Shown: positions 23,005-43,290, counted from the stretch's first letter. The stretch: 64,000 bases of DNA from Peptostreptococcaceae bacterium (GCA_051654865.1 JBOFYV010000007.1:32053-96052), one strand, 5' to 3'. A program made the numbers and translations. The notes: generated from the sequence alone by a model not told the origin.

Positions 23005-24279
23005 ATGATAGAAAAAGTAGCGTCAAATAAAATAAAAAAAGAAAATAATAAACTAAAAGAAAGGCTTAGAAATATAGGTCCTGGAGCATTAATTGCAGCA
23101 GGATTTATAGGGCCGGGAACAATAACTACATGTACAAAATCTGGAGCAAGTAGTGGATATACATTACTGTGGGCTATGTTATTTTCTACTGTAGCTACGA
23201 TAATATTTCAAGAAATGTCAGCTAGACTTGGGATAGTGACTCAAAAAGGTCTAGGAGAGAATATTAGAGAAAAAATATCGCATAAAATATTGAAAACATT
23301 CGCGGTAACGATAGTAATAGTTGCTATATTTATAGGTAATATTGCTTATGAAACTGGAAACTTAGTAGGAGGTTCAATGGGACTTTCAACATTAGTTCCA
23401 TCAGTACCTAATCAAATATGGGCACCTCTATTAGGTGTATTGGCATTTATGTTATTGTGGTCAGGTAACTATAAGAAAATAGAAAAAATATTGATAGCTT
23501 TAGTTTTAATTATGAGCGTTACATTTTTTAGTACAGCTATATTATCCAAACCAGATATAGGAGCGATACTAAAAGGAATGTTTATTCCAAGCGCGGGTAC
23601 AAATGATTGGCTAACTATAGTAGGATTAATAGGGACTACAGTGGTTCCGTATAATTTATTTCTTCATGCATCATCAGTATCAGAGCGTTGGAAAAATAAA
23701 GAAGATTTAAAAAATGCAAGAATAGACACTGTAATATCAATAGGTTTGGGAGGATTAATATCTATAGCAGTAATAGTATCTGCATCAGCATCATTTTATG
23801 GAAGTGATGTAGTTATAGATAGTGGTGCAATAATGGCTCAACAATTAGAACCTTTACTGGGGTCATGGGCAAAGTGGTTCTTTGGTATAGGTTTATTTGC
23901 AGCAGGTTTTACCTCTTCAATAACAGCGCCATTATCAGCAGCATTTGCTACAGCAGGAGCACTAGGATATAAAAAAGATATGAAAAGTATTAAATTTAAA
24001 TCTATATGGATAGTAGTACTGGGAGTGGGAATAATATTAAGTGCGATAGGTATGTCATCAAGTCCTATGGAACTTATATTAGTAGCACAAGCTGCAAATG
24101 CAATAATACTACCAATAATAGCAATTTTCTTAATGTATGTATTAAACCATAATGACTTAGGTGAGTTTAAAAATAAGCTTTGGAACAATATATTAGGAAT
24201 AGGTATATTATGTGTAACGCTAGTTATAAGTTACAGGTCCTTATTATCATTTGCAAGTACTTTTAAAAGTTTACTTTAA
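23005..24279 (+). CDS. mntH: Nramp-family divalent metal (Mn2+/Fe2+) transporter
   Basis: 424 aa; GPGALIAAGFIGPGTITT Nramp signature; 11-12 TM helices; last gene of the pxp-acc operon. Confidence 0.7.
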   Translation: MIEKVASNKIKKENNKLKERLRNIGPGALIAAGFIGPGTITTCTKSGASSGYTLLWAMLFSTVATIIFQEMSARLGIVTQKGLGENIREKISHKILKTFAVTIVIVAIFIGNIAYETGNLVGGSMGLSTLVPSVPNQIWAPLLGVLAFMLLWSGNYKKIEKILIALVLIMSVTFFSTAILSKPDIGAILKGMFIPSAGTNDWLTIVGLIGTTVVPYNLFLHASSVSERWKNKEDLKNARIDTVISIGLGGLISIAVIVSASASFYGSDVVIDSGAIMAQQLEPLLGSWAKWFFGIGLFAAGFTSSITAPLSAAFATAGALGYKKDMKSIKFKSIWIVVLGVGIILSAIGMSSSPMELILVAQAANAIILPIIAIFLMYVLNHNDLGEFKNKLWNNILGIGILCVTLVISYRSLLSFASTFKSLL

Positions 24280-24287
24280 TTTTTAAG

Positions 24288-24320
24288 AAAAGACCTTTGT
24301 TTCTAAAGAGGTCTTTTTTT
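24288..24320 (+). terminator. rho-independent terminator
   Basis: agaccttt gtttctaa agaggtct followed by ttttttt. Confidence 0.7.
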
Positions 24321-24410
24321 GTATATATTGATGACAATAAAATAAAATATTCCATATAGATAAAATATACTAGAAGAGTTTTATTTGTTATATAGTATTT
24401 TAAATTTATT

Positions 24411-24438
24411 AAAGAGCTCAAGAGAGCTCTTTTTTTAT
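24411..24438. terminator. bidirectional terminator
   Basis: aaagagctc aaga gagctctttttttat; on the minus strand it is followed by a U-rich tract and sits just after the stop of the Cys-rich gene. Confidence 0.7.
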
Positions 24439-24440
24439 TA

Positions 24441-24776
24441 TTAGCAAGTGGAACAAGGGCAATTATAGTTAGTAGAGATTTCTCTAACACAAATATTAAT
24501 TGGGTTTGTTGATACTAAACTAATTACGCCACTACAATTAACATTTACAGTTACTAAAACAACACTTGTAACAGGAGTTGATGTGACAACTGTTTTTTGT
24601 GCTATATAATAATATACAGTTTGGCAATTACATTTTTCTAGTACTAATAGAGGAACATAAGTAGTACCTAAGATATTGCCAATAGCTGTGTTGAAAATTT
24701 GTAATTGAGCAGCTGTTAATGGTGCGAAATTACCACAAGTATAAGTGTTATTTTGGTTACAATTATTTTGTACCAT
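24441..24776 (-). CDS. small cysteine-rich protein (9 Cys in 111 aa), possible spore coat/exosporium component
   Basis: RBS ggag 9 nt upstream; no signal peptide; beta-strand-rich core with terminal Cys clusters (C6, C14, C49-x-C51, C81, C96, C106-x-C108, C111); isolated monocistronic unit. Confidence 0.55.
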   Translation of the reverse strand: MVQNNCNQNNTYTCGNFAPLTAAQLQIFNTAIGNILGTTYVPLLVLEKCNCQTVYYYIAQKTVVTSTPVTSVVLVTVNVNCSGVISLVSTNPINICVREISTNYNCPCSTC

Positions 24777-24830
24777 AATAGCATCTCCAATATTATATTT
24801 AGAATAGTATAAAAATACGATTCTATGAAA

Positions 24831-24860
24831 TATTATATGTATTTAAAATCAAAATGTGAC
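24831..24860 (-). promoter_or_regulatory. candidate sigma-K-type (or sigma-A) promoter for the Cys-rich protein
   Basis: minus strand reads AC-16nt-CATATAATA, about 55 nt upstream of the start; AT-rich context makes a chance match possible. Confidence 0.25.
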
Positions 24861-25125
24861 AAAATAAATAAAAAAAGACTATACCTTAAATCCGATCAGG
24901 TATAGTCTAAATACAAAATATATTATAAAAAGGGGTTTATTAGGGAATATATTTTATTTGGGGAGTAAATTGGTTATTAGGGGAATAACCATGTATTAAT
25001 AATAACATTGCTTCCCAGAAAAAGCAACAAAAAACGACAAAAAAATTGAAAAAAATGAATGAGTAGCTAAAATAAACAAATAATATGTTTGAGGTCTAAT
25101 TTGTTATTGAAAGAGGTTGTGCAAA

Positions 25126-26484
25126 ATGATTTTGACGAAAGATAAATATTTTTATAAGACAGCACTTAATATAGCACTACCAATAGCTATACAAAATCTT
25201 ATTACTTTTTCTGTAAGTATGGCGGATACAGTAATGCTTGGAAACTTAGGTGAATTAAGCTTATCAGCATCATCAATAGGTAATCATCTAGGATTTTTTT
25301 TAATGGTATTAATGTTTGGTGTTGGAGGTGGTGCTAGTGTTATGGCATCTCAATATTACGGACAAAAAGATGTAGATTCTATACATAAGGTGATTGCTAT
25401 TATGTACAGAGTGTGCATTATACTTAGTGTATTTTTCGCACTTATAGCTATAATTACACCTAAATTGTTTATGAATATATATACAAATGATATAGAGGTT
25501 ATAAATGAAGGGGTATTATATATTCGAATAATTGGAATTAGTTATATATTTTACTCTATTACAAATTGTACAATTTCTATATTAAGGTCTGTAAAAACAG
25601 TAAGAATTTCGCTATTAGTATATTCAATTTCGTTAATTATAAATATATTTTTTAACTATATATTAATTTTTGGGAAGCTAGGATTTCCAGTATTAGGCAT
25701 AAGAGGAGCTGCTATTGCAACCGTTATATCAAGAATAGCTGAATTTTTAATAGTATTAATATTTATAATATATTTTGAAAAGAAGATACATCTAAGGTTT
25801 AAAGATATTACAGTTATAGATAAAGATATGATTAGTAATTTTAAAAAGGTATGCACACCTATAATATTAAATGAACTATTTTGGGCAATAGGTTCAACTA
25901 TAATTTCAATAATAGTAGGTAGAATGGGAAGAGTAGTAGTAGCTGCAAATAGTATAAATAATGTAACTTTCCAGTTTGCATCATTATTTGTTTTTGGACT
26001 TGCTAGTGCATCTTCAGTAATTATAGGTAATATTATAGGTGAAGGAAAGTACGAAAAAGCTAAAGAATATGCAAGTACAATATGTATTTTAAGTTTTGCT
26101 ATGGGGATTTTATCAGGATTAACTATATACTTAGTGAGACCGATAGTGGTTAATTTTTATAATGTATCACAAAGTACAAAAGTAATAGCTATGCAAATAA
26201 TGATAGCTACATCTATAATAGCTATATTTAAATCTTTAACATCAAATATAATGATGGGAGTACTAAGAGGTGGTGGTGATAACAAATTTGTTTTTAAAGT
26301 TGAAATGATTTTTTTATGGTGTATATCAATTCCCCTAGGATTATTAAGTGCTTTTGTATTTAAATTACCTATATTTGTAATATTTATAGCAATTAAAATA
26401 GATGAAGTTTTAAAAGCGTTAGTAGGCATACTAAGGCTAAAAAGTGGAAAATGGATAAAAGATTTTACAAGAGGATATAAATAA
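25126..26484 (+). CDS. MATE-family efflux transporter
   Basis: about 452 aa; MATE topology; RBS aaagaggt before ATG 25126. Confidence 0.8.
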   Translation: MILTKDKYFYKTALNIALPIAIQNLITFSVSMADTVMLGNLGELSLSASSIGNHLGFFLMVLMFGVGGGASVMASQYYGQKDVDSIHKVIAIMYRVCIILSVFFALIAIITPKLFMNIYTNDIEVINEGVLYIRIIGISYIFYSITNCTISILRSVKTVRISLLVYSISLIINIFFNYILIFGKLGFPVLGIRGAAIATVISRIAEFLIVLIFIIYFEKKIHLRFKDITVIDKDMISNFKKVCTPIILNELFWAIGSTIISIIVGRMGRVVVAANSINNVTFQFASLFVFGLASASSVIIGNIIGEGKYEKAKEYASTICILSFAMGILSGLTIYLVRPIVVNFYNVSQSTKVIAMQIMIATSIIAIFKSLTSNIMMGVLRGGGDNKFVFKVEMIFLWCISIPLGLLSAFVFKLPIFVIFIAIKIDEVLKALVGILRLKSGKWIKDFTRGYK

Positions 26485-31291: not shown

Positions 31292-31303
31292 TGAGGTGAT
31301 TGT

Positions 31304-32011
31304 ATGATTAATAATGGATTTTCTATTATTACTGTAACTAATAGGAAATATTGCATAGATAATATATTGAAAAACTACTATAATCAGATGTTTACTAATA
31401 AAGAACTTATTATTATTATTAACTCAGACTATATTGAAATAAGTGATTTTAGTAGATATACTAATGACTTAAATGTACGTATATTCAATAAATTAGGTAA
31501 CGTCACACTAGGAGAATGCTTAAATTTTGCAATAGAAAAATGTAATTATGACTTTATTGCAAAATTTGATGATGATGACTACTATGGCGTGTATTATATA
31601 CAAGAAGCCTTTAATATATTTTCAAATAACAGTTGTGCAGTTGTAGGCAAAAGTAGAACGTATTATTATATAGAAAAAAATAATGAATTAATGTTAAAGA
31701 AAATAGGAAATGAAAATAAATATAGCAACTCTATAATGGGATCTACTATTTGTTTTAAAAAAGAAGTTTATCAGAAGATAAAATTTAGACATATATCATC
31801 TAGGGAAGATTACTATTTTAATAAGGATTGTATAAATAGTGGGTACAGAATATTTTCATCATCTTCTTTTAATCATATTGTATTTAAGCATTCAGATGAA
31901 TATAAACATACTTTTATGTCTAATATTGAGATACTAATGGGTAAATGTGAAATTATTAAAGAAAATATATCTTTTGAAGAGAGTTTTAAATTTGTAGACT
32001 TTTTAACTTAA
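31304..32011 (+). CDS. GT-A fold (GT2-like) glycosyltransferase, paralog A
   Basis: 235 aa; FSIITVTNRKY..NKELIIIINSD N-terminus and KFDDDDYYG DxD motif; no TM segment; paralogous to 33197..33937. Confidence 0.6.
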   Translation: MINNGFSIITVTNRKYCIDNILKNYYNQMFTNKELIIIINSDYIEISDFSRYTNDLNVRIFNKLGNVTLGECLNFAIEKCNYDFIAKFDDDDYYGVYYIQEAFNIFSNNSCAVVGKSRTYYYIEKNNELMLKKIGNENKYSNSIMGSTICFKKEVYQKIKFRHISSREDYYFNKDCINSGYRIFSSSSFNHIVFKHSDEYKHTFMSNIEILMGKCEIIKENISFEESFKFVDFLT

Positions 32012-32020
32012 AACTTGATA

Positions 32021-32075
32021 TAAATATTAATACAAGGAAGAATAAAGACGTTTTAGTCATTAATCTTTCCTTGTA
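32021..32075. terminator. bidirectional terminator
   Basis: acaaggaaga ...23 nt... tctttccttgt followed by atattttattta; lies between convergent genes. Confidence 0.6.
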
Positions 32076-32079
32076 TATT

Positions 32080-32982
32080 TTATTTATCTAGTATTATTAA
32101 ACCTTGTCTTGCACCAGAATGCTTATAGTTTATACCAGTATAATAAAAGTAATATATACTATTGACAATAGTTAAACTTGGTCTGTATAATCCATTCTTA
32201 TCCCAATTATTATCACTTACCTTTAGTATTGTAGAACAATTGCTCCAAAGTTTATTATCTAGGCTACAGGAATATATACATGATTGTCTATTTTTTACAT
32301 TTGCTACTAATTCATACAGTTCACCGTTTTTAATAACGTCGATATGCCAGAGTTTAATTTCGCTAAGTTGCATATCTCTTATGTGCATTAAATTTATGCC
32401 ATCCAAGCTCTCATAATATCTAAGTAGATAAGTGTTATAGTCTAAAGTTCCAACAAACCATACTTTGTATATATCATCATTATATATAACGGCAGGAGAT
32501 AATAGCCAACCATCAGTACCATTACTTTCTAATAATTTTATTCGTGTAGACCAATGTATTCCATCAGTGGAAACTTTTTTATATATAGTCTCTTTTCTTG
32601 GATTTTTAGAAAAGTGTCGATACCATACTTCCATAGTATCTCCATTCATAACTATATGTGTATCGCTATTGTATTCCAAGTTTTCTTTTTTTATATTATC
32701 AATAGGGTTTATTAATCCATTAGGCACAGTCCAATTTACACTATCATTTGAAACAACAATACAGGGATTTTCTATATTTTCATTTATTGAAGGGTAGTAT
32801 GTTAAAGGTGTAAATACCATCCAAAATTTATATCCATTCCACCCATTGTCAAAGTATAATGTTTTGCTGTGAACACATTGATTGCTACCGTCATAAGTAG
32901 GAATATTCAAATATTGAGATGCATTATCAAGATAAGTTTTATCTAATGAGAGAGTTTTTTTGTAAAACATAATATATACCAC
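32080..32982 (-). CDS. beta-propeller glycoside hydrolase-like protein (GH43/GH32/GH130-type fold, uncertain)
   Basis: 300 aa; repeated W/Y-rich blade-like segments; no signal peptide; RBS aggtgg. Confidence 0.35.
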   Translation of the reverse strand: MVYIMFYKKTLSLDKTYLDNASQYLNIPTYDGSNQCVHSKTLYFDNGWNGYKFWMVFTPLTYYPSINENIENPCIVVSNDSVNWTVPNGLINPIDNIKKENLEYNSDTHIVMNGDTMEVWYRHFSKNPRKETIYKKVSTDGIHWSTRIKLLESNGTDGWLLSPAVIYNDDIYKVWFVGTLDYNTYLLRYYESLDGINLMHIRDMQLSEIKLWHIDVIKNGELYELVANVKNRQSCIYSCSLDNKLWSNCSTILKVSDNNWDKNGLYRPSLTIVNSIYYFYYTGINYKHSGARQGLIILDK

Positions 32983-33196
32983 CTATAATTATTTTATATT
33001 TGACAAACACATACAAATATATCTATATATTAGCATATGTATTTTATAAAAAAATGTAACATTATATAATAAAATAAAATATACACATTATAATTTAAAG
33101 ATATAAAATTAAGAATAATTCAGGAACTAATGAAATTGCAATGCATATTATATTATAAATATATGAACATGGTAAATTTAAAGGAGGAGAATTAAG

Positions 33197-33937
33197 TTGA
33201 CTATTGAAGAGGGATTCTCTGTTGTTACATCAACTTATAGATACGAGTGTATAGAGAACTTGATTAATAATTTTATAGTTCAAGATTTTAAAAATAAAGA
33301 ATTAATAGTAATAATAAATAATGATAGTATAGAAATATCTGATTTTGATATTTATACACAAAAAGAGTCGAGTATAAAAGTTTACAAACTTCCACAAGCG
33401 ACAAATCTAGGAATTTGTTTGAATTTTGCAATAAGCAAAGCAAAATATAAATATGTAGCTAAATTTGATGATGATGATTTGTATGGCAAAAACTATTTAA
33501 AAGAAGCGTATAATGCTTTTATTAAAGAAGATTGTGATGTGGTTGGTAAATGGCAGTATTTAATTTATTTAGAAGGAGAAAATAAAATTCTTGCAAGGCC
33601 TAAAGATCCAAGGAGAAGTAGACAATTTGCATATGTATCGTGGCTTCCTGGGGCTACTCTTTGCTTTAAAAAAAGTATATTTGAAGACATAGAATTTTCT
33701 GATATAAATAGTCAAGTAGATGATGATATAATGAAAAAATGTGTTGAAAAAAAATTAAAGATATTTTCAACATCAAGAAATAATTTTATAGCAATGAGAC
33801 ATATAGATACAAATAAGCACACATGGAAGATAACTCATGAGAAACTTATAGAAACTTGTACTTTGATTAAAGAGGATATATCATTTGAAAAAGCGTATGA
33901 AGCTATAAATAATGATGATGATTTATATACAAATTAA
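33197..33937 (+). CDS. GT-A fold (GT2-like) glycosyltransferase, paralog B
   Basis: 246 aa; TTG start with RBS aaggaggag; FSVVTSTYRYECIENL..NKELIVIINND and KFDDDDLYG; about 40-45% identical by eye to paralog A. Confidence 0.6.
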   Translation: MTIEEGFSVVTSTYRYECIENLINNFIVQDFKNKELIVIINNDSIEISDFDIYTQKESSIKVYKLPQATNLGICLNFAISKAKYKYVAKFDDDDLYGKNYLKEAYNAFIKEDCDVVGKWQYLIYLEGENKILARPKDPRRSRQFAYVSWLPGATLCFKKSIFEDIEFSDINSQVDDDIMKKCVEKKLKIFSTSRNNFIAMRHIDTNKHTWKITHEKLIETCTLIKEDISFEKAYEAINNDDDLYTN

Positions 33938-33999
33938 AATTTATACTATACAAACATATAATAAGCAATAAATTATATCATAATAGAAAGGAGCCAAAT

Positions 34000-35292
34000 A
34001 TGTTATATAGTAAATCAGAATATAATAAAATCGCAGTAATTGGACTAGGATATGTAGGATTACCGCTAGCTATAGAATTTGATAAACATTTTAGCGTAAT
34101 TGGATTTGATATAGATAAAAACAAGATAAAATCATATATTGAAGGAATAGATGCGACAAATGAAGTTGGAGATGATAATTTAAAAAACAGTACTATTGAG
34201 TTTACATCAGATGAAACAAAACTAAAGGAAGCGAACTTTTATATAATAGCAGTTCCAACTCCAATAAATATAGATAAAACACCTGATTTAAATCCTATAA
34301 TATCAGCAAGTGAAATTGTAGGTAGAAATTTAGAATCAGGAGCTGTAATCGTATATGAATCAACTGTTTATCCAGGACTTACAGAAGAAGTATGTATTCC
34401 TATACTTGAGAAAAGTTCAAGTCTTAAATGCAAAGATGATTTTAAGGTGGGGTATTCTCCTGAAAGGATAAACCCTGGAGATAAAGTAAATAAACTTCCA
34501 AGTATAGTTAAGATAGTTTCTGGATGTGATGAAGAAGCATTAGAAATTATATCTAATATATATGGTGTAATAATTAAAGCAGGATTATGTAAAGTGAAGA
34601 ATATAAAAGTTGCAGAAGCCGCAAAAATACTAGAAAATTCACAAAGAGATATAAATATAGCATTTGTAAATGAAGTTGCAATGATTTTTCATAAAATGGA
34701 TATAGATATAAATGAAGTATTAAATGCTTGTAAGACTAAGTGGAATTTTTTAGACTTTACACCGGGCTTAGTAGGTGGAAATTGTATAGGTGTAGATCCA
34801 TATTACTTAATATATAAAGCAAATACTCTAAGCTGCTCATCTCAAATAATATCTTCAGCTAGAAATATAAATGATAATATGGGAAATTATATAGGTGAAA
34901 ATATAATAAAAAAACTTATTCTTTGCAACAAAAAGGTAAAAAACGCTAATGTAGGCATATTTGGAATAACATTTAAGGAAGATTGTCCAGATTGTAGCAA
35001 TAGTAAAGTAGTAGATATAATTAATTATTTAAAGGAATATGATGTAAATATAAAGGTTTTTGATCCAGTAGCTAGTTTTGATGAAATTAAGAAGAAATTT
35101 AATGTAGAGCTATGCAAAATAGAAGAAATGAAAGACTTTGATGTTATAGTATTTGCAGTAAATCATCAGTTCTTCAAAGACACATTTAATATAGAAAATA
35201 TAAGTATACTCTATCAATCTGATACTAAAATTTTGATAGACATAAAAGGTATCTTTGATGATACAGATAAGTATGTATATTGGAGATTATGA
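34000..35292 (+). CDS. nucleotide-sugar dehydrogenase (UDP-GlcNAc/UDP-ManNAc 6-dehydrogenase family, TviB/WbpA/Cap5O-like)
   Basis: 430 aa; N-terminal Rossmann KIAVIGLGYVGLPLA; central catalytic Cys region GGNCIGVDPYY. Confidence 0.75.
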   Translation: MLYSKSEYNKIAVIGLGYVGLPLAIEFDKHFSVIGFDIDKNKIKSYIEGIDATNEVGDDNLKNSTIEFTSDETKLKEANFYIIAVPTPINIDKTPDLNPIISASEIVGRNLESGAVIVYESTVYPGLTEEVCIPILEKSSSLKCKDDFKVGYSPERINPGDKVNKLPSIVKIVSGCDEEALEIISNIYGVIIKAGLCKVKNIKVAEAAKILENSQRDINIAFVNEVAMIFHKMDIDINEVLNACKTKWNFLDFTPGLVGGNCIGVDPYYLIYKANTLSCSSQIISSARNINDNMGNYIGENIIKKLILCNKKVKNANVGIFGITFKEDCPDCSNSKVVDIINYLKEYDVNIKVFDPVASFDEIKKKFNVELCKIEEMKDFDVIVFAVNHQFFKDTFNIENISILYQSDTKILIDIKGIFDDTDKYVYWRL

Positions 35293-35324
35293 TTTTAGTT
35301 ATAAAAAATTAAAAGGTGATAGAT

Positions 35325-36887
35325 ATGAACTTGGATTTAAATCAAAGTAAATGGTTAAGCAAAAGTAAAGTGAAAATATATAATGATAATAATTTTTTAG
35401 TAATAGAATATGATGAATCAAGCAGTGAACATGGGTATGAATATATACAATATGAACATTTTACTACATTCACTAAATATAGTGAAAAAGATAGAACTGA
35501 TATGAGCCCAAATAATGTCTATAGGGTAGATTTTGATGGCAAAATTGAAGGTAATATAAATGTACTATTGACAATAAAAACTTATTCAAAAGCAGGACAA
35601 CTGTCCTCTAATAATATAACTACAGGTAGTAGTATTATTATGAAAGCAGATGAAAATATAATATCCTATAAAGTTGCAATAAGAGTAAGTGGAAAAGGTA
35701 GAATAGTAATCAATAATATAAGTATAAATGATTTTAATGAAAATTATTTAGCAAATAAAGACAAAAGTGAAAAATATCTTATATTAACCAATGGGTACCC
35801 TAGTGATAATGATTTATATAGAAATGCATTTATTCATAGAAGAGCAAAACTGTATAAATCTAGTAACTTAAATCTTGATATATATTATTTATGCAAAGAC
35901 AGATATTTGATTAGCTATAAATTTGATGGAGTTGATATATACAAAGGTAATAGTAAAATGTTAGAAGATGTTATTAAATATGGAAATTATAAAAAAATAT
36001 TAATACATTTTGTAGACTCAACTATGATTGATACAATAAATAAAAATATACCTAATATAGAAAAAGTTGTGTGGATTCATGGTTATGAAGCTGAACGATG
36101 GGATAGAAGACTATTTAATTATACAGGCGATGAAATAGATAGAAATAAGTTTATATTTGATAAAAATGATGAAAATAAGTTTATATTTCTAAGAAAAATA
36201 TATAAAAGTCCTGAATATACATTTGTGTTTGTATCTAATTATCATAAAGAAGCTTGTGAGAGTGATGCTAATACAAAAACAAAACACTCATATGTAATTC
36301 CAAATGTAGTAGATGAAAAGCTTTTTAATTTTACACCAAAAGATATAGAACAAAGAAAAAAGATACTTTTAATAAGACCGTTTAAATACAAACATTGTGC
36401 TAATGACTTAGCAGTAAAAGCAATAATAGAATTAGCTAAAAGAGAAATTTTTAAAGAATTAGAGTTTAATATATACGGAGAAGGTAGTTTATTCTATGAG
36501 ACTTTAAGTCCTATAAAGGATTTAAAAAATGTTAACATACACAATACCTTTTTAACTCAAGATGAAATTTCACAAATGCACAAAAAACATGGAGTGTTAT
36601 TGTGTCCAACAAGAAAAGATAGTCAGGGTGTATCAATATGTGAGGCAATGAGTAGTGGACTAGTACCTGTTTCCACAAATATAGATGCTATACCAGAATT
36701 TGTTCCTTTCAATTGTGGTATGCTATCAAATCCAGAAGATTATATAGGGCTTGCCAATTCAATAGAATATATTTATAACCATCCTGATATATTTTTAGAA
36801 ATGTCCCAAAATGCATCTTCTTTTATTAAGAATAAGTGTGGAATAGATAAGACAATATCAAAAGAATTAGAAATAATAAGACGCTAA
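35325..36887 (+). CDS. GT4-family (GT-B, Glycos_transf_1) glycosyltransferase with an N-terminal extension of about 140 aa
   Basis: C-terminal ...HGVLLCPTRKDSQGVSICEAMSSGLVPVSTNIDAIPEFV typical GT4 E-x7-E region; ATG 35325 preferred over GTG 35316 on RBS spacing. Confidence 0.65.
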   Translation: MNLDLNQSKWLSKSKVKIYNDNNFLVIEYDESSSEHGYEYIQYEHFTTFTKYSEKDRTDMSPNNVYRVDFDGKIEGNINVLLTIKTYSKAGQLSSNNITTGSSIIMKADENIISYKVAIRVSGKGRIVINNISINDFNENYLANKDKSEKYLILTNGYPSDNDLYRNAFIHRRAKLYKSSNLNLDIYYLCKDRYLISYKFDGVDIYKGNSKMLEDVIKYGNYKKILIHFVDSTMIDTINKNIPNIEKVVWIHGYEAERWDRRLFNYTGDEIDRNKFIFDKNDENKFIFLRKIYKSPEYTFVFVSNYHKEACESDANTKTKHSYVIPNVVDEKLFNFTPKDIEQRKKILLIRPFKYKHCANDLAVKAIIELAKREIFKELEFNIYGEGSLFYETLSPIKDLKNVNIHNTFLTQDEISQMHKKHGVLLCPTRKDSQGVSICEAMSSGLVPVSTNIDAIPEFVPFNCGMLSNPEDYIGLANSIEYIYNHPDIFLEMSQNASSFIKNKCGIDKTISKELEIIRR

Positions 36888-36893
36888 AACTTT

Positions 36894-36942
36894 AGCCAAT
36901 AGTACCTAGAAATTAATATGGAAGCTATTGGCTTTATTATGT
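36894..36942 (+). terminator. candidate terminator
   Basis: agccaatag ...23 nt... ctattggct followed by ttattatg; weak U-tract. Confidence 0.35.
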
Positions 36943-36996
36943 CTATTCAAAACATTTCATTATTAGTTAAATGCTTGTTAGTATGATGAAGTTGTA

Positions 36997-37686
36997 TTAA
37001 TCCTTAGACAAGTTAAAATTATTTAAAATTATTTTCTTTTGAATAGAATTATCTATAATATTCCTTACAAATGGATGATTAAACTTAGTGCTAGTATTTT
37101 GACCATGTAGTATTACCATAAAATTTCCACTATTAAATACATAATGATTAAGTTTTATTGCATTAGTATGGCTATTTAGTATATATCTGAATCCACTTAA
37201 ATAGTCTTGAACTTTGTAAATAAGAGTAAAAAAAGGAGGGGATTGAGCATACCAAATTCCCAAATTATCACCAACTATATCATAGACATAACCTTCTTTA
37301 TTTACTATACACTCTAAGTTGGAGGTATGCTCAAAATCTATTAATTGTTGAATGAAATTAGGATGATACATATCATCACTGTCTAGTCTTACAATATAAA
37401 GATAATCATAACCATGTATAATTTTTTTTATAAGAGCGTTTCCACTAGATGTAAAGATTATATTAGAAGGCATTAAATCATATTGAGAAAGAGCGCTTTG
37501 AATTAATACCTCGCTAAGTTCATCATAGTGAATTATAGCAGTAAAAGATTGGTTAGTTTGATTTATCAAACTTTTAAATGTATAATTCATAAAAATGCTC
37601 ATTCTATAGTCAATCCATTCTTTATTTAGTCGAAATTGGTTTAGTTTATTCTTATTGAAACTAATATCAATAATTATTTTTTTCAT
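36997..37686 (-). CDS. GT-A fold glycosyltransferase (DSDD motif; putative rhamnosyltransferase-like family)
   Basis: 229 aa; LYIVRLDSDDMYHPNF DxD-type motif; RBS gaggtga; no TM. Confidence 0.5.
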   Translation of the reverse strand: MKKIIIDISFNKNKLNQFRLNKEWIDYRMSIFMNYTFKSLINQTNQSFTAIIHYDELSEVLIQSALSQYDLMPSNIIFTSSGNALIKKIIHGYDYLYIVRLDSDDMYHPNFIQQLIDFEHTSNLECIVNKEGYVYDIVGDNLGIWYAQSPPFFTLIYKVQDYLSGFRYILNSHTNAIKLNHYVFNSGNFMVILHGQNTSTKFNHPFVRNIIDNSIQKKIILNNFNLSKD

Positions 37687-37788
37687 AGTATCACCTCAAT
37701 ATACAATATGTAAATTTATAGGAAATAGTGCTACCTTCTATACTCATAAGTGATTCATAGTTATTAAATATGCAAATTAATATCCTTT

Positions 37789-37917
37789 GATCAATATATA
37801 ATTGTAAAAGATATTGGAATTGGAATGCCTAAAGAAAAAATAGAAAATAAAGATGATGACATATTAGATTCACCGACTCAATTTTTAAGTGGGGGAAATA
37901 TATTATAGGTGGAATTT
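37789..37917 (+). pseudogene. short remnant resembling a histidine-kinase ATP-binding G1 box
   Basis: Frame reads ISFDQYIIVKDIGIGMPKEKIENKDDDILDSPTQFLSGGNIL-stop with no usable start; compare VKDTGIGMS in the intact kinase at 55427..57403. Confidence 0.25.
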
Positions 37918-38075
37918 TCGGATATATATATAAAGATAAGATAAAAAGTCAGAATATATCAAAAGACTATGAATTTTAAAAATTAATAGTCTTTTTTGCA
38001 TATCGAAATATAAAGGGAATAGTTTTATGAAAAAGAATATAAATTAAGAAGTAAATTATTGGGGGAAATTGTAAC

Positions 38076-39662
38076 ATGAGAAAGATACTAAATTCTATAA
38101 TTATTTTTTCAGCATTAGTTACTATCACAGGGTGTACATCGACTATTCAAACTGAAGTAAAAAACGAGGTAGAAGAAGAGGTAAAGGAAGTAAAAGAAGA
38201 ACTATTAACATCAATAGAAACATCATACTTAGATAATGAAACTTTATCATACAAAACAAATACAGAATTTGAACATAATAAAGATATAGTATTTCAAAAT
38301 AAATATTCTGATATAGATGGAATATTTACATTTAGAGGAAACTCTCTTAGGAATGCACCTTCATTTGGTAATGCAAAACTAGATAGCAAAGAACTTGAAG
38401 TAGCATGGGAATTTAGAACATCTTCTAGCTCTTGGGGAGGAGGAGCTGGATGGACAGGTCAGCCAAGTATAATCAAGTGGCCAAAAGAACTTAGAGAAAG
38501 TATGAACATATATGATGAATTTAAGAGTAAAGAAGATTTTACAGAGGTTATATATGCAAGCTTAGATGGAAATATATATTTTATAGAGTTAACATCAGGA
38601 AAGCCAACCAGAGATAAAATAAGAGTAGGAAATCCAATAAAGGGAAGTGTAAGTATAGACCCTAGAGGAATACCATTGTTATATGTAGGAGAAGGTATAA
38701 ATGAAAGTGGAACAGTAGGATTTAATATATATAGCTTGATAGATGGATCTCATTTATATGAATTGCCAGGATCTGATTCATTTGCAAGTAGAGGGTGGCC
38801 AGCATTTGATTCATCTGCTATAGTAAACAAAGAAACAGATAGTGTGGTATTAGGTGGAGAGAATGGGTTATTATATAATATAAAATTAAATACAGACTAT
38901 GATAAAAATAACAACACGATAAGCATAGATCCTAAAATAAATAAATATAATTTTTCATCAAATCTAAACAAAGGGCGTTTAGGAATAGAAAACTCAGTAG
39001 CTACATATGCAAACCTTGCTTACTTTGCAGATAATGGTGGAGTAATACAATGTGTAGATTTAAATACTTTAAATCCAGTATGGTCAATAAATGGTTTTGA
39101 TGATATTGATGCTACATTAACTATAGATGTAAAAGAAGGAAAACCATATGTATACTGTGGAAATGAAGTAGACCATCAGGGAACTAGAGGAATCAGTAAA
39201 TTAAAAAAGATTGATGGGCTAACAGGAGAAGTAATTTGGGAAAAAGAATTTGAATGTCAGTCACTATTAGGGAAAAAACCTAATAATGGAGGTCTAATGG
39301 CTACAAATGTAATAGGTAAAAATAATATTGATGACTTAGCAATATTCTCACTAGCAAGATATAATGGATTTAATAAAGGAGGTACGTTTGCTTTAAACAA
39401 AGAAACAGGAGAAATAGTTTGGGAAACTTTATTTGATAATTATATGTGGTCATCACCTGTTGATATATATGATGAAAATGGAAATGGATATATTATCCAA
39501 GGGGACAGTGCGGGGAATTTACATCTATTAGATGGCGAATACGGTAAGAATCTAAATTCAGTATTATTAAATGGAAACATAGAAAGCTCACCTGCAGTAT
39601 ATAACGATATGGTAGTAGTTGCAACTAGAAATGGAACAATATACGGAGTAAAAATAAAATAA
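38076..39662 (+). CDS. lipoprotein with PQQ-like/BamB-like beta-propeller repeats
   Basis: 528 aa; lipobox VTITGC; repeated ...DG.IY..D..TG..VW... propeller blades. Confidence 0.6.
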   Translation: MRKILNSIIIFSALVTITGCTSTIQTEVKNEVEEEVKEVKEELLTSIETSYLDNETLSYKTNTEFEHNKDIVFQNKYSDIDGIFTFRGNSLRNAPSFGNAKLDSKELEVAWEFRTSSSSWGGGAGWTGQPSIIKWPKELRESMNIYDEFKSKEDFTEVIYASLDGNIYFIELTSGKPTRDKIRVGNPIKGSVSIDPRGIPLLYVGEGINESGTVGFNIYSLIDGSHLYELPGSDSFASRGWPAFDSSAIVNKETDSVVLGGENGLLYNIKLNTDYDKNNNTISIDPKINKYNFSSNLNKGRLGIENSVATYANLAYFADNGGVIQCVDLNTLNPVWSINGFDDIDATLTIDVKEGKPYVYCGNEVDHQGTRGISKLKKIDGLTGEVIWEKEFECQSLLGKKPNNGGLMATNVIGKNNIDDLAIFSLARYNGFNKGGTFALNKETGEIVWETLFDNYMWSSPVDIYDENGNGYIIQGDSAGNLHLLDGEYGKNLNSVLLNGNIESSPAVYNDMVVVATRNGTIYGVKIK

Positions 39663-39668
39663 ATTATA

Positions 39669-39722
39669 AAAGTCCCGTTTGTGATAATATTGATTTAGCA
39701 TCATAAATAGGGCTTTTTATTA
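39669..39722 (+). terminator. candidate terminator
   Basis: imperfect hairpin tttgtgat ...14 nt... atcataaa within agtccc...gggc, followed by tttttatt. Confidence 0.35.
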
Positions 39723-39853
39723 TTTTGTTAAAAATATGTAAAGTTTGAATCTGTTGTTTGAAGATAATAAAAGCAGGTATATATATTAAAGATAAAACAT
39801 AAAACTTAAAATATAGTTATTTTTTTAAAAAAATTGAAAAGGGGCTAAAGTTT

Positions 39854-40486
39854 ATGGATTTAATTAGTAAAATAAGAAAAAATACAGGGGCTTTACATAG
39901 TGCGACTGAAAATAGTGGTATTATAAAAAGAATATTAGATGTAAATTCTAATAAAGATGATTATGCAGAGTATTTATTTAATCTATATCCAATGTACAAA
40001 GCAATAGAAGATACTATTGAAAATAATAAATCTAATGAAACTGTAAAAAACTTTGCAACAAAAGAATTATATAAGTCTGAATTAATAAAAGAGGACTTAG
40101 AGTATTTACTAGGTGACAAAATAGACACACTAAAGTTACTACCGTCAACAATAGCTTCAGTAGAAAGAATTCGACAAATAAATGAAAATGAGCCGGAGCT
40201 TATAGTTGCATATGCATACACAAGATTTATAGCAGACTTATTTGGAGGACGTACTTTTGCTACATTATTAAGTGAGAAATACGAACTACCAACAGAAGCT
40301 CTAAATTATTATAATTGTGAAGGTATAAAAGATATTAGAGGCTATGTAATGAACTATGCTTCTAAAATAAATAATATAGAATTAACAAAAGAGAAGGAAG
40401 ATAAAATTTTAAATGAAGTAAGTAATGCATATATATATAACTTAGGAATATCATGTGAATTAGAGGCTAAATTGAATAAAAAGTAA
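39854..40486 (+). CDS. heme oxygenase (HO-1/HemO-like, biliverdin-producing) family protein
   Basis: 210 aa; N-terminal LHSATENSGIIKRIL...YAEYLFNLYPMYKAIE matches the heme oxygenase proximal helix pattern. Confidence 0.5.
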   Translation: MDLISKIRKNTGALHSATENSGIIKRILDVNSNKDDYAEYLFNLYPMYKAIEDTIENNKSNETVKNFATKELYKSELIKEDLEYLLGDKIDTLKLLPSTIASVERIRQINENEPELIVAYAYTRFIADLFGGRTFATLLSEKYELPTEALNYYNCEGIKDIRGYVMNYASKINNIELTKEKEDKILNEVSNAYIYNLGISCELEAKLNKK

Positions 40487-40694
40487 CTATAATGAAAACG
40501 TATAAACAAATTAATCACCCCCATATGAGTTAAAATAAACTTATATGGGGGTATTTCTTATATATAATACCGCGAAATAATACAATGAATTAATAATATT
40601 TTATAAATAATACTTTAAACATCAAATAAAAATAGCACAATAAAATAGTTGCTGTCATATTATAAAGAAAATATATAAATAGGGGGCAATTATT

Positions 40695-41201
40695 ATGAAA
40701 AAGTATATTGATAATAAAAATAGACCTGGTGGAATTGTAATATTCCCACCGGGAGGAGGACCAGGACCGGTTATATATCCACCAAATACATTTCCACCTA
40801 TACCGCCATTACCACAACCAGAAAATGATAAGTTTAAGGTGAAAATAAAATCAGTATTTGAAAATGGATTTGTAGTAGTTGGGGAAAATGGATATTTATA
40901 CGTAGCTGAAGATAAGTATACTAAAAATGCAGTATTTAAATTGATATTTGATAAAAATCAAGTAAAAATCAAGTATATAAATGATAACTTTATAAGAGTT
41001 GATCAAAGGGGATTCTTGATAGCTGATACCAATAAAAAAGGTGCTACAGTATTTAATTTATATAAAGTGGACAAGGAACAATATGTATTACAAGCTCCAA
41101 ATGGATATTATGTAAGAGTAAGGGATAAAGATAATTTACTAGTAGCAAAAGCTGAAAAAGCAGGGCCAAGAACTATATTTAAATTTAAAATGGTAGATTA
41201 A
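40695..41201 (+). CDS. beta-trefoil (fascin-like) domain protein with Pro/Gly-rich N-terminal linker
   Basis: 168 aa; three pseudo-repeats of about 40 aa; PPGGGPGPVIYPPNTFPPIPPLPQP segment; no signal peptide. Confidence 0.4.
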   Translation: MKKYIDNKNRPGGIVIFPPGGGPGPVIYPPNTFPPIPPLPQPENDKFKVKIKSVFENGFVVVGENGYLYVAEDKYTKNAVFKLIFDKNQVKIKYINDNFIRVDQRGFLIADTNKKGATVFNLYKVDKEQYVLQAPNGYYVRVRDKDNLLVAKAEKAGPRTIFKFKMVD

Positions 41202-42780: not shown

Positions 42781-42845
42781 AAAATCAAAAGTGTATCAAT
42801 ATAAATATTATTATATTGATACACTTTTGATTTATTATTTTTTAA
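42781..42845. terminator. bidirectional terminator with a 21-bp perfect stem
   Basis: aaatcaaaagtgtatcaatat aaatattatt atattgatacacttttgattt followed by attatttttt. Confidence 0.75.
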
Positions 42846-43290
42846 TAATAAAATCCTTTATATATCCGTAAGACTCATAATTATCAAACATAGGTATAGA
42901 TGAATCAAATTTAACATAAATAGGTGTATTAATAAGCTCTGGGTATTTTATGAATAAATCCTTATCACCATAAAATATAGCTTCTAGGGCTAATCTCATA
43001 TGGTATTTAAAAGCGGCATATTTCATAGATGCACTAAAAAAATCTGACTCGTTAACATAAGCATAAAAATATAATTTATAAGAAACATCCTCAGACATTT
43101 TCCAAGAACCTAAAAGTTCATCTCTTAAATCTTTGTTTATAGCTTCATAATTAAAAAAATCAGCTATATTCAAAAACATCATACCAGTATCATCAGAATG
43201 GGTAAGGGTGTACTTTCTATTTTCAATAGGTCCAAAAGGAGTCATAGGTTCAATAAACGTAGTTTCTAATTTATTAGGGTTAAATTTCAT
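42835..43290 (-). CDS. STAY-GREEN (SGR) family protein homolog (Mg-dechelatase-like)
   Basis: 151 aa; YTLTHSD block and C-terminal GDKDLFIKYPEL...VKFDSSIPMFDNYES match, as I recall them, the plant SGR/NYE1 blocks (YTLTHSD; GDGNLLNNYPEL..VYFHSN.PEFNKVE). Confidence 0.6.
   Translation of the reverse strand: MKFNPNKLETTFIEPMTPFGPIENRKYTLTHSDDTGMMFLNIADFFNYEAINKDLRDELLGSWKMSEDVSYKLYFYAYVNESDFFSASMKYAAFKYHMRLALEAIFYGDKDLFIKYPELINTPIYVKFDSSIPMFDNYESYGYIKDFIIKK

Follow-up and report, generated by a model that had tools for sequence, protein, structure and literature searches.

The locus examined here raises the question of what a stand-alone gene for a small protein with nine Cys residues contributes to a Peptostreptococcaceae bacterium. 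The gene lies on the minus strand of a 64,000-nucleotide (nt) stretch of DNA (GCA_051654865.1, JBOFYV010000007.1:32053-96052), which is referred to in full as the window, and the database copy of its product is labelled 'MAG: hypothetical protein ACRDA3_00725 [Peptostreptococcaceae bacterium]', MAG denoting a metagenome-assembled genome. A preliminary description of the window, made from its sequence, proposed a component of the spore coat or exosporium with a core resembling the C1q/TNF-like domain of BclA. The reading that we favor, with a probability of roughly 0.5, is that ACRDA3_00725 would be made in the mother cell as a spore coat or exosporium protein that can be cross-linked and that has a different core, a non-inhibitory stefin scaffold. 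The features that bear directly on this reading are as follows.

24441..24776, minus strand: coding sequence with an ATG start, 111 amino acids (aa), nine Cys (8.1%) and no signal peptide.
24785..24788, minus strand: ribosome-binding site GGAG, 8 nt 5' of the ATG and kept at the ortholog locus L001.
24486..24734, minus strand: predicted cystatin/stefin-like domain, residues ~15-97.
24621..24635, minus strand: hairpin loop L1, K48-C-N-C-Q52, aligned with QVVNG (QxVxG); the model strands end at residues 49 and 53.
24831..24857, minus strand: putative sigma-K-type promoter with a -35 AC (24857-24856), a 16-nt spacer and a -10 CATATAATA (24839-24831).

The translated protein, MVQNNCNQNNTYTCGNFAPLTAAQLQIFNTAIGNILGTTYVPLLVLEKCNCQTVYYYIAQKTVVTSTPVTSVVLVTVNVNCSGVISLVSTNPINICVREISTNYNCPCSTC, carries Cys at positions 6, 14, 49, 51, 81, 96, 106, 108 and 111, which include the clusters C49-N-C51 and, at the C terminus, C106-P-C-S-T-C111. 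Its N terminus, MVQNNCNQNNTYTCGN, is hydrophilic and without a hydrophobic stretch. The stand-alone 111-aa open reading frame (ORF), its nine Cys, its CPCSTC end and its lack of a signal peptide had all been described before, and the sequence bears each of them out. The only close relative, P0002, is 81% identical and is encoded on two short Logan contigs (L001 and L002). Over 102 codons, 15.5 synonymous and 18.5 non-synonymous changes separate the two genes, and the resulting ratio of non-synonymous to synonymous polymorphism (pN/pS) of 0.36 establishes that the gene is real.

Regarding the family to which the protein belongs, ACRDA3_00725 is not recognized by Pfam or NCBIfam, the single sequence falling short of PF00031, and a phmmer search of the PDB with it returned a noise match only; for ten relatives, NCBIfam likewise yielded no usable match. 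When a profile built from the protein and its ortholog was run exhaustively against 1.84 billion cluster representatives with HMMER, it returned 71 matches at E < 1e-3 over residues ~15-96, many of the targets matching several times per protein and the best E value, 7e-15, being to repeat proteins. These targets contain one to six copies of a ~85-residue module with the signature GGW...T.E..(helix)..F..A...L.G..Y.P....SQVVAGTNY.F, the GGW...QVVAG elements of which read as the stefin/cystatin signature; human stefin A has MIPGG...YKTQVVAGTNYYIKV. Some targets reach PF00031 at borderline scores, and 3 of 87 relatives touch this model. A 37-sequence family profile (alignment A2) matched the Fasciola type-1 cystatin 6i1m (2e-4), cystatin-A2 8gqq (1e-3) and 4lzi (8e-3) in the PDB, as well as multicystatin and tick cystatins.

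The AlphaFold model obtained from an 87-sequence alignment had a mean predicted local distance difference test (pLDDT) score of 81, with 69 residues above 90; an earlier model from two sequences, with a pLDDT of 53, was too weak. The elements of the model follow the order beta1, helix 22-32 and strands 38-49, 53-63, 69-79 and 85-92 (beta1-alpha-beta2-L1-beta3-beta4-L2-beta5), which gives the N-terminal strand, the long helix on a five-stranded antiparallel sheet and the L1 and L2 loops of a cystatin fold. The length of 111 aa and the lack of a signal peptide agree with the stefin type (~100 aa, no signal peptide), and the 'F-R-P-L-T' that precedes the helix, together with the 'P-L-L-V-S-T-Q' spacing, which is shorter by one residue, places the protein in a signal-peptide-less subgroup. 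On the combined strength of the profiles and the model, ACRDA3_00725 is a divergent, Cys-rich member of a bacterial stefin-like (type-1 cystatin) family, and it is this fold, instead of the C1q/TNF-like core claimed previously, that both lines of evidence return.

Bacterial stefins have been reported in Clostridia, where they are experimentally uncharacterized and have been proposed to inhibit host cathepsins (Kordis and Turk, 2009; PMC2784779). We compared ACRDA3_00725 with such proteins (MEROPS I25A-like), for example the signal-peptide-less ones of 86-95 aa from Clostridia, Pseudomonas, Chryseobacterium, Aeromonas and Shewanella. It shares with them the homologous domain, the fold, the helix-then-sheet order, the lack of a signal peptide, the 'F-x-P-L-T ... 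G-x-x-Y-x-P-L-L-V' framework and the short spacing of their subgroup. It differs from them in having nine Cys, against 0-2 in typical members, and N-, Q- and Cys-rich tails at both termini, in the replacement of GG and QxVxG by Y-T and K-C-N-C-Q, and in a sigma-K-type promoter, the non-Cys-rich loci L048 and L053 having ordinary, sigma-A-like promoters of the TTGACA type.

Beyond this comparison, the bacterial stefin/cystatin-like domain (P0003-P0188) is common among Firmicutes of the gut, where it makes up secreted proteins or lipoproteins with a single domain as well as arrays of two to six repeats, some of them carrying an LPXTG anchor (P0004). Word-seeded searching with a profile gathered 874 proteins, almost none of which carried a Pfam or NCBIfam annotation, and a dedicated family model for the domain seems to be missing. 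A profile scan of genome contigs (alignment A5) found mostly Gram-negative stefin-like genes, together with two from Cellulosilyticum MAGs.

The two motifs by which stefins contact their target are replaced in ACRDA3_00725. In alignments A2 and A3, the QVVNG/QVVAG of L1 is aligned with K48-C49-N50-C51-Q52, and the GG of the N-terminal trunk with Y12-T13; G15, two residues past Y12-T13, lies in a low-confidence segment, and the register for GG could in principle be shifted. The ortholog P0002 has both replacements as well. Since the GG and QxVxG contacts are replaced, papain-type inhibitory activity has most likely been lost. The Cys residues are found at the edges of the fold: C49 and C51 lie in L1, C81 lies in L2 (N80-C-S-G-V84), C96 is just past the last strand, and C6, C14, C106, C108 and C111 are in disordered tails (pLDDT < 50), so that all nine are peripheral. 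The inhibitory wedge of a cystatin is the place where the trunk, L1 and L2 come together, and C14, C49, C51 and C81 may therefore be neighbors in space.

ACRDA3_00725 is not the only Cys-rich protein among the matches. At least ten other signal-peptide-less matches have 6-23 Cys, mostly in Cys/Pro-rich N-terminal extensions before one stefin domain; the Cys-rich relatives are P0009 (N terminus MSQCRKCCCKECCCKKCYPCYSPSYPCYPPYP), P0013, P0016, P0018, P0020, P0039, P0047, P0053, P0067, P0072, P0190 and P0205, and two more are encoded in MAGs of Cellulosilyticum sp., namely L015 (197 aa) and L041 (226 aa, with CSQECxC repeats). GG and QVVNG are intact in most of them, including P0009, P0013, P0020, P0053, P0190 and P0205, and P0039 (INECV) and P0072 (KIHDG) are degenerate at L1, as is ACRDA3_00725. 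As for the surroundings of these genes, a 61-66-aa YjfB_motility (PF14070) gene is located directly upstream at the Cellulosilyticum-type loci L012, L013 and L015 (and probably L041), a nitroreductase gene lies upstream of P0009/P0190 (L003, L005 and L009), and a thioredoxin gene lies directly downstream of P0039 (L007).

The evidence that connects the gene with sporulation is its promoter. In C. difficile, sigma-E and sigma-K promoters have a common -10 and differ at the -35 (ATA versus AC), and the sigK P2 promoter has the -10 CATATAAT and the -35 AC (Saujet et al., PMC3789822). The AC-16 nt-CATATAATA motif pointed out in the preliminary description is indeed present at 24857..24831 on the minus strand, and an in silico comparison shows an exact match to the C. 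difficile sigma-K consensus AC/CATATAAT. L001 has the same -35 block, GTCACATTTT, and the same -10 block, CATATAATATT, as the window, and the spacer between them has accumulated substitutions and a 1-nt indel. We then scanned the 250 nt upstream of each Cys-rich homolog with retrievable DNA, the strict motif being defined as AC-N16/17-CATAnnnTA. All nine Cys-rich loci with enough upstream DNA, from four lineages, have AC-N16/17-CATAnnnT(A) at 71-82 nt before the ATG, at the following positions.

Window locus: strict motif, -81.
L001 (P0002): strict motif, -82.
L007 (P0039): strict motif, -77.
L012 (P0020): strict motif, -75.
L013 (P0205): strict motif, -71.
L015: strict motif, -73.
L041: strict motif, -75.
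L003 (P0009): relaxed motif CATACTATG, -80.
L009 (P0190): relaxed motif CATACTATG, -81.

In the Cellulosilyticum-type loci, the -10 variants CATATTATA, CATATTGTA, CATATTCTA and CATATGATA have TTA, TTG, TTC and TGA as 'nnn', the variation being confined to the free positions of the consensus. In shuffled sequences, the strict motif occurs by chance in 1-2% of cases per locus anywhere in the 250 nt and in 0.1-0.3% within -95..-60, and its density in the window is 14 per 128 kilobases of strand. Upstream of non-Cys-rich relatives, it was found at none of ~115 control loci (35 relatives and 80 loci from a second metagenome scan). The ortholog keeps the -35 and -10 unchanged, and the same architecture recurs at the same distance in three other Cys-rich lineages; the sigma-K-like promoter is not a one-off of AT-rich DNA. 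Outside the lineage of ACRDA3_00725, the -35 matches TTGACA poorly or at the wrong spacing, and the C of CATA at -13 and the AC at -35 are always kept; sigma-K is favored over sigma-A for this reason.

A separate observation concerns a non-Cys-rich, 84-88-aa stefin-like lineage (MPGGWSYQSYLTPYDSFIFFNAIGRH...), which has a conserved GCATATAnTnTA element 40-55 nt before the ATG in human-gut and other gut metagenome contigs (L091, L094-L096, L098, L100-L104, L107-L109, L117-L121 and L125). Since this element is a -10 of the mother-cell type, sporulation control may extend past the Cys-rich members.

Taken together, these results support the earlier suggestion of an unsecreted, cross-linkable protein of the spore outer layers, in that a recurrent sigma-K-like promoter accompanies the Cys-rich genes and is absent from the non-Cys-rich control loci. 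Under the reading that we favor, sigma-K RNA polymerase would transcribe the gene in vivo late in the mother cell as a monocistronic unit, and the protein would be made without a signal peptide in the mother-cell cytoplasm and deposited on the developing spore; no export would be needed because coat and exosporium proteins assemble from that compartment. The stefin core would serve as a compact, stable module displaying nine peripheral Cys, three of them in L1 and L2, the loops that formerly bound proteases, one past the last strand and five in the flexible tails. Once the mother cell lyses, these Cys would form intermolecular disulfides between copies of the protein or with other coat or exosporium proteins, and ACRDA3_00725 would thus act as a structural or cross-linking brick from which papain-type inhibition has gone.

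Several points weigh against this reading. The lineage of ACRDA3_00725 itself comprises two sequences only: a word-seeded homolog search with the single sequence found the protein and one ortholog, the HMMER search added no other member, and a metagenome scan for further orthologs found zero. The Cys columns are not conserved among the Cys-rich relatives, which fits cross-linking and would result from neutral drift too. The L006 locus (P0016) is without the motif, the upstream sequence there being 86 nt only. The promoter site of ACRDA3_00725 can also be read as GTCACA-17-TATAAT, a fair sigma-A promoter with 10/12 matches, and no canonical spo, ger or cot gene was present among the ~40 window ORFs scanned.

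A wider scenario, which we regard as possible and no firmer than tentative, is that spore-forming Clostridia (Peptostreptococcaceae, Cellulosilyticum-type Lachnospiraceae and others) repeatedly recruited the stefin fold into the sigma-K regulon as a so far unrecognized class of spore-surface proteins, the intact members displaying an inhibitor and the degenerate ones being structural. P0009, P0020, P0053 and P0205, with intact GG/QVVNG and Cys/Pro-rich anchoring tails, would display a cysteine-protease inhibitor on the spore, which would either shield the coat against cathepsins of the gut, of protozoa or of invertebrates or regulate a protease of coat maturation. In degenerate members, ACRDA3_00725 among them, the inhibitory wedge would have turned into a cysteine cluster, leaving purely structural bricks cross-linked by disulfides.

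Among the alternatives, the one that survives best, albeit as an unlikely one, is that ACRDA3_00725 is still a working inhibitor, spore-associated or cytoplasmic, the altered wedge of which (the C14 trunk, KCNCQ in L1 and NCSG in L2) binds another cysteine peptidase. The clear membership in the cystatin superfamily, the retention of GG/QVVNG in the six intact relatives listed above and the promoter type shared with many relatives all speak for it, and the intact-motif Cys-rich relatives could plausibly be inhibitors that a Cys-rich tail tethers to the spore. The candidate targets are a cathepsin of a host or predator that the spore encounters, in line with the role proposed for bacterial stefins (PMC2784779), the sporulation protease YabG, which is under sigma-K control in C. 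difficile (PMC3789822), and an endogenous C1-family enzyme. However, the hallmark contacts of ACRDA3_00725 itself are those that have been replaced (GG by Y-T and QVVNG by KCNCQ), P0039 and P0072 are likewise degenerate, and no peptidase gene is adjacent to the gene.

Next in rank, and improbable in our judgment, is a vegetative, sigma-A-dependent cytoplasmic protein in which the Cys clusters C14/C49/C51/C81 of the former wedge and C96/C106/C108/C111 at the C terminus bind metal (Zn, Fe or Cu) or serve in redox sensing or buffering, the sigma-K-like motif being a by-product of AT-rich DNA. The 10/12 match to sigma-70 would then be the actual promoter, and the convergence of the trunk, L1 and L2, as judged from the fold topology and the model, could bring four Cys close together. 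The C-x-C and C-P-C-x-x-C spacings occur in metal-binding proteins, thiolate ligation would be more natural than disulfides in the reducing cytoplasm of an anaerobe, and an NRAMP metal transporter gene is located next door. Against this, the NRAMP neighborhood is not conserved at L001, the other lineages fit TTGACA poorly and keep the CATA C and the -35 AC, the Cys columns are not conserved across relatives, contrary to what a defined metal site would entail, and no match to any metal-binding family was obtained in Pfam, NCBIfam or the phmmer search of the PDB.

It is highly improbable that ACRDA3_00725 is the precursor of a Cys-rich bacteriocin or other ribosomally synthesized and post-translationally modified peptide (RiPP) exported by the neighboring MATE pump: the small size, the Cys content, the C-terminal CPCSTC and the divergent MATE gene would suit such a role, but 80 residues of the protein fold into a globular domain with homology to stefins, a leader-like motif is missing, genes for a modification enzyme, C39 peptidase, ABC exporter or immunity are absent from the vicinity, and the downstream neighbor differs at L001. 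A BclA-like protein of the exosporium nap with a C1q/TNF fold, the least credible of all, has in its favor a beta-rich, Thr/Val-rich composition only and is refuted by the lack of GXX repeats, a model with a helix and an antiparallel sheet, and fold searches with no C1q/TNF-like match. ACRDA3_00725 is probably a novel building block of the spore surface and neither BclA-like nor bacteriocin-like.

Known proteins with which it can also be compared are the Cys-rich morphogenetic proteins of spores. CdeC and CdeM contain 9% and 8.7% Cys, respectively, and CdeM is a lineage-specific protein of 161 aa encoded by a monocistronic gene among housekeeping genes (PMC6101409). ACRDA3_00725 resembles CdeC/CdeM and CotY/CotZ/ExsY in its Cys content (8-9% in these proteins), the lack of a secretion signal, a predicted late mother-cell promoter and a small, lineage-restricted, monocistronic gene, and disulfide cross-linking and self-assembly would be a role common to it, CotY/ExsY and CdeC/CdeM. 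It differs from all of them in sequence and fold, no homology to CotY/CotZ/ExsY or CdeC/CdeM being detected in Pfam, NCBIfam or among the homologs found, and in having a defined stefin fold, whereas CdeC and CdeM are without recognized domains. A precedent for a non-inhibitory cystatin fold that is used structurally is provided by the CRES-type cystatins; however, CRES (cystatin-8, of the family-2 cystatins) is eukaryotic, secreted and assembled into amyloid, and nothing in the present analysis of ACRDA3_00725 pointed to amyloid or domain swapping. No publication that connects cystatins or stefins with sporulation turned up in our literature searches. Bacterial stefins and Cys-rich spore proteins are each known, and a Cys-rich branch of stefins with sigma-K-type promoters is unreported in the literature that we found.

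The arrangement of the locus was also reconsidered, using the following features.

24411..24432 (no strand assigned): palindromic hairpin, terminator of the ACRDA3_00725 gene and probably bidirectional; minus-strand fold of -13.3 kcal/mol, z = -4.5.
24284..24321 (no strand assigned): second hairpin, terminator of the convergent NRAMP gene; -8.5 kcal/mol.
24869..24908 (hairpin 24876..24908 plus tail), minus strand: upstream intrinsic terminator with an 11-base-pair stem and U7; -15 kcal/mol, z = -4.0.
23005..24279, plus strand: NRAMP metal transporter gene, convergent with the ACRDA3_00725 gene.
25117..26484, plus strand: MATE gene, divergent from the ACRDA3_00725 gene.

The hairpin at 24411..24432 is directly 3' of the stop codon, and its position between an A-run and a T-run suggests that it acts in both directions. 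That at 24284..24321 is followed on the minus strand by UUUUCUU and could be a back-up terminator for the ACRDA3_00725 gene. The upstream terminator, which ends ~12 nt 5' of the promoter -35, is kept at L001 with one compensatory change of A:U to G:C; no ORF was found upstream of it on the minus strand. It either shields the promoter from minus-strand transcription coming from upstream, as we conclude, or terminates an unannotated small RNA that runs divergently from the MATE gene. The gene thus proves to be monocistronic and well insulated, on grounds other than those given previously: the two hairpins that had been said to enclose it exist, but both lie 3' of it, the actual 5' boundary at 24876..24908 on the minus strand had been overlooked, and the setting is not one between convergent operons, the NRAMP gene being convergent and the MATE gene divergent. 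Further neighbors are LamB/YcsF and biotin carboxylase genes. At L001, the NRAMP neighborhood is not kept and a different downstream neighbor is found, and across the lineages of the family the neighbors vary (nitroreductase, YjfB-like, thioredoxin, NRAMP/MATE); the gene neighborhood was rejected as a functional clue for this reason.

Just beyond the upstream terminator (24940..25000) are two copies of TTATTAGGG(G)AAT. An Rfam scan of the window gave no match at the gathering score and sub-threshold matches only in intergenic regions; the best in the region of the upstream terminator was ncr1241, with 21 bits against a gathering score of 60.

Elsewhere in the window, four more strict AC-N16/17-CATAnnnTA motifs were found 40-75 nt upstream of genes in 31300..41200, at 33126 (plus strand), 33057 (minus), 37729 (minus) and 40637 (plus). 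The genes downstream of these motifs are listed below.

33197..33937: GT2 glycosyltransferase.
32080..32982, minus strand: unknown protein of 300 aa.
36997..37686, minus strand: rhamnosyltransferase-like gene.
40695..41201: 168-aa signal-peptide-less protein with a Pro-rich N terminus and a fascin/beta-trefoil domain.

The intervening DNA contains a uridine diphosphate (UDP)-sugar dehydrogenase-like gene and more genes for glycosyltransferases, and to judge from the motifs and gene content the region may be a sigma-K-driven cluster for spore-surface glycosylation and coat proteins. The window also encodes a full-length homolog of Staygreen (PF12638, E = 1e-43; 42835..43290, minus strand) and, a few kilobases away, a heme oxygenase (PF01126; 39854..40486, plus strand), which is an unusual pairing of tetrapyrrole-handling genes in the MAG of an anaerobic Firmicute.

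To our knowledge, the composition of the spore coat and exosporium is almost unknown outside Bacillus and C. difficile, and the known Cys-rich morphogenetic proteins (CotY/ExsY and CdeC/CdeM) are lineage-restricted and without recognizable folds. The genes of the family described here are all currently annotated as 'hypothetical protein' because the family is invisible to Pfam and NCBIfam. If the present interpretation is correct, a sporulation-controlled, Cys-rich branch of stefins would supply a defined structural module for the outer layers of spores and would provide the first physiological context for bacterial stefins, which have so far only been guessed to be anti-host inhibitors. It also leads to the testable idea that the surface of some gut spores may bear protease inhibitors.
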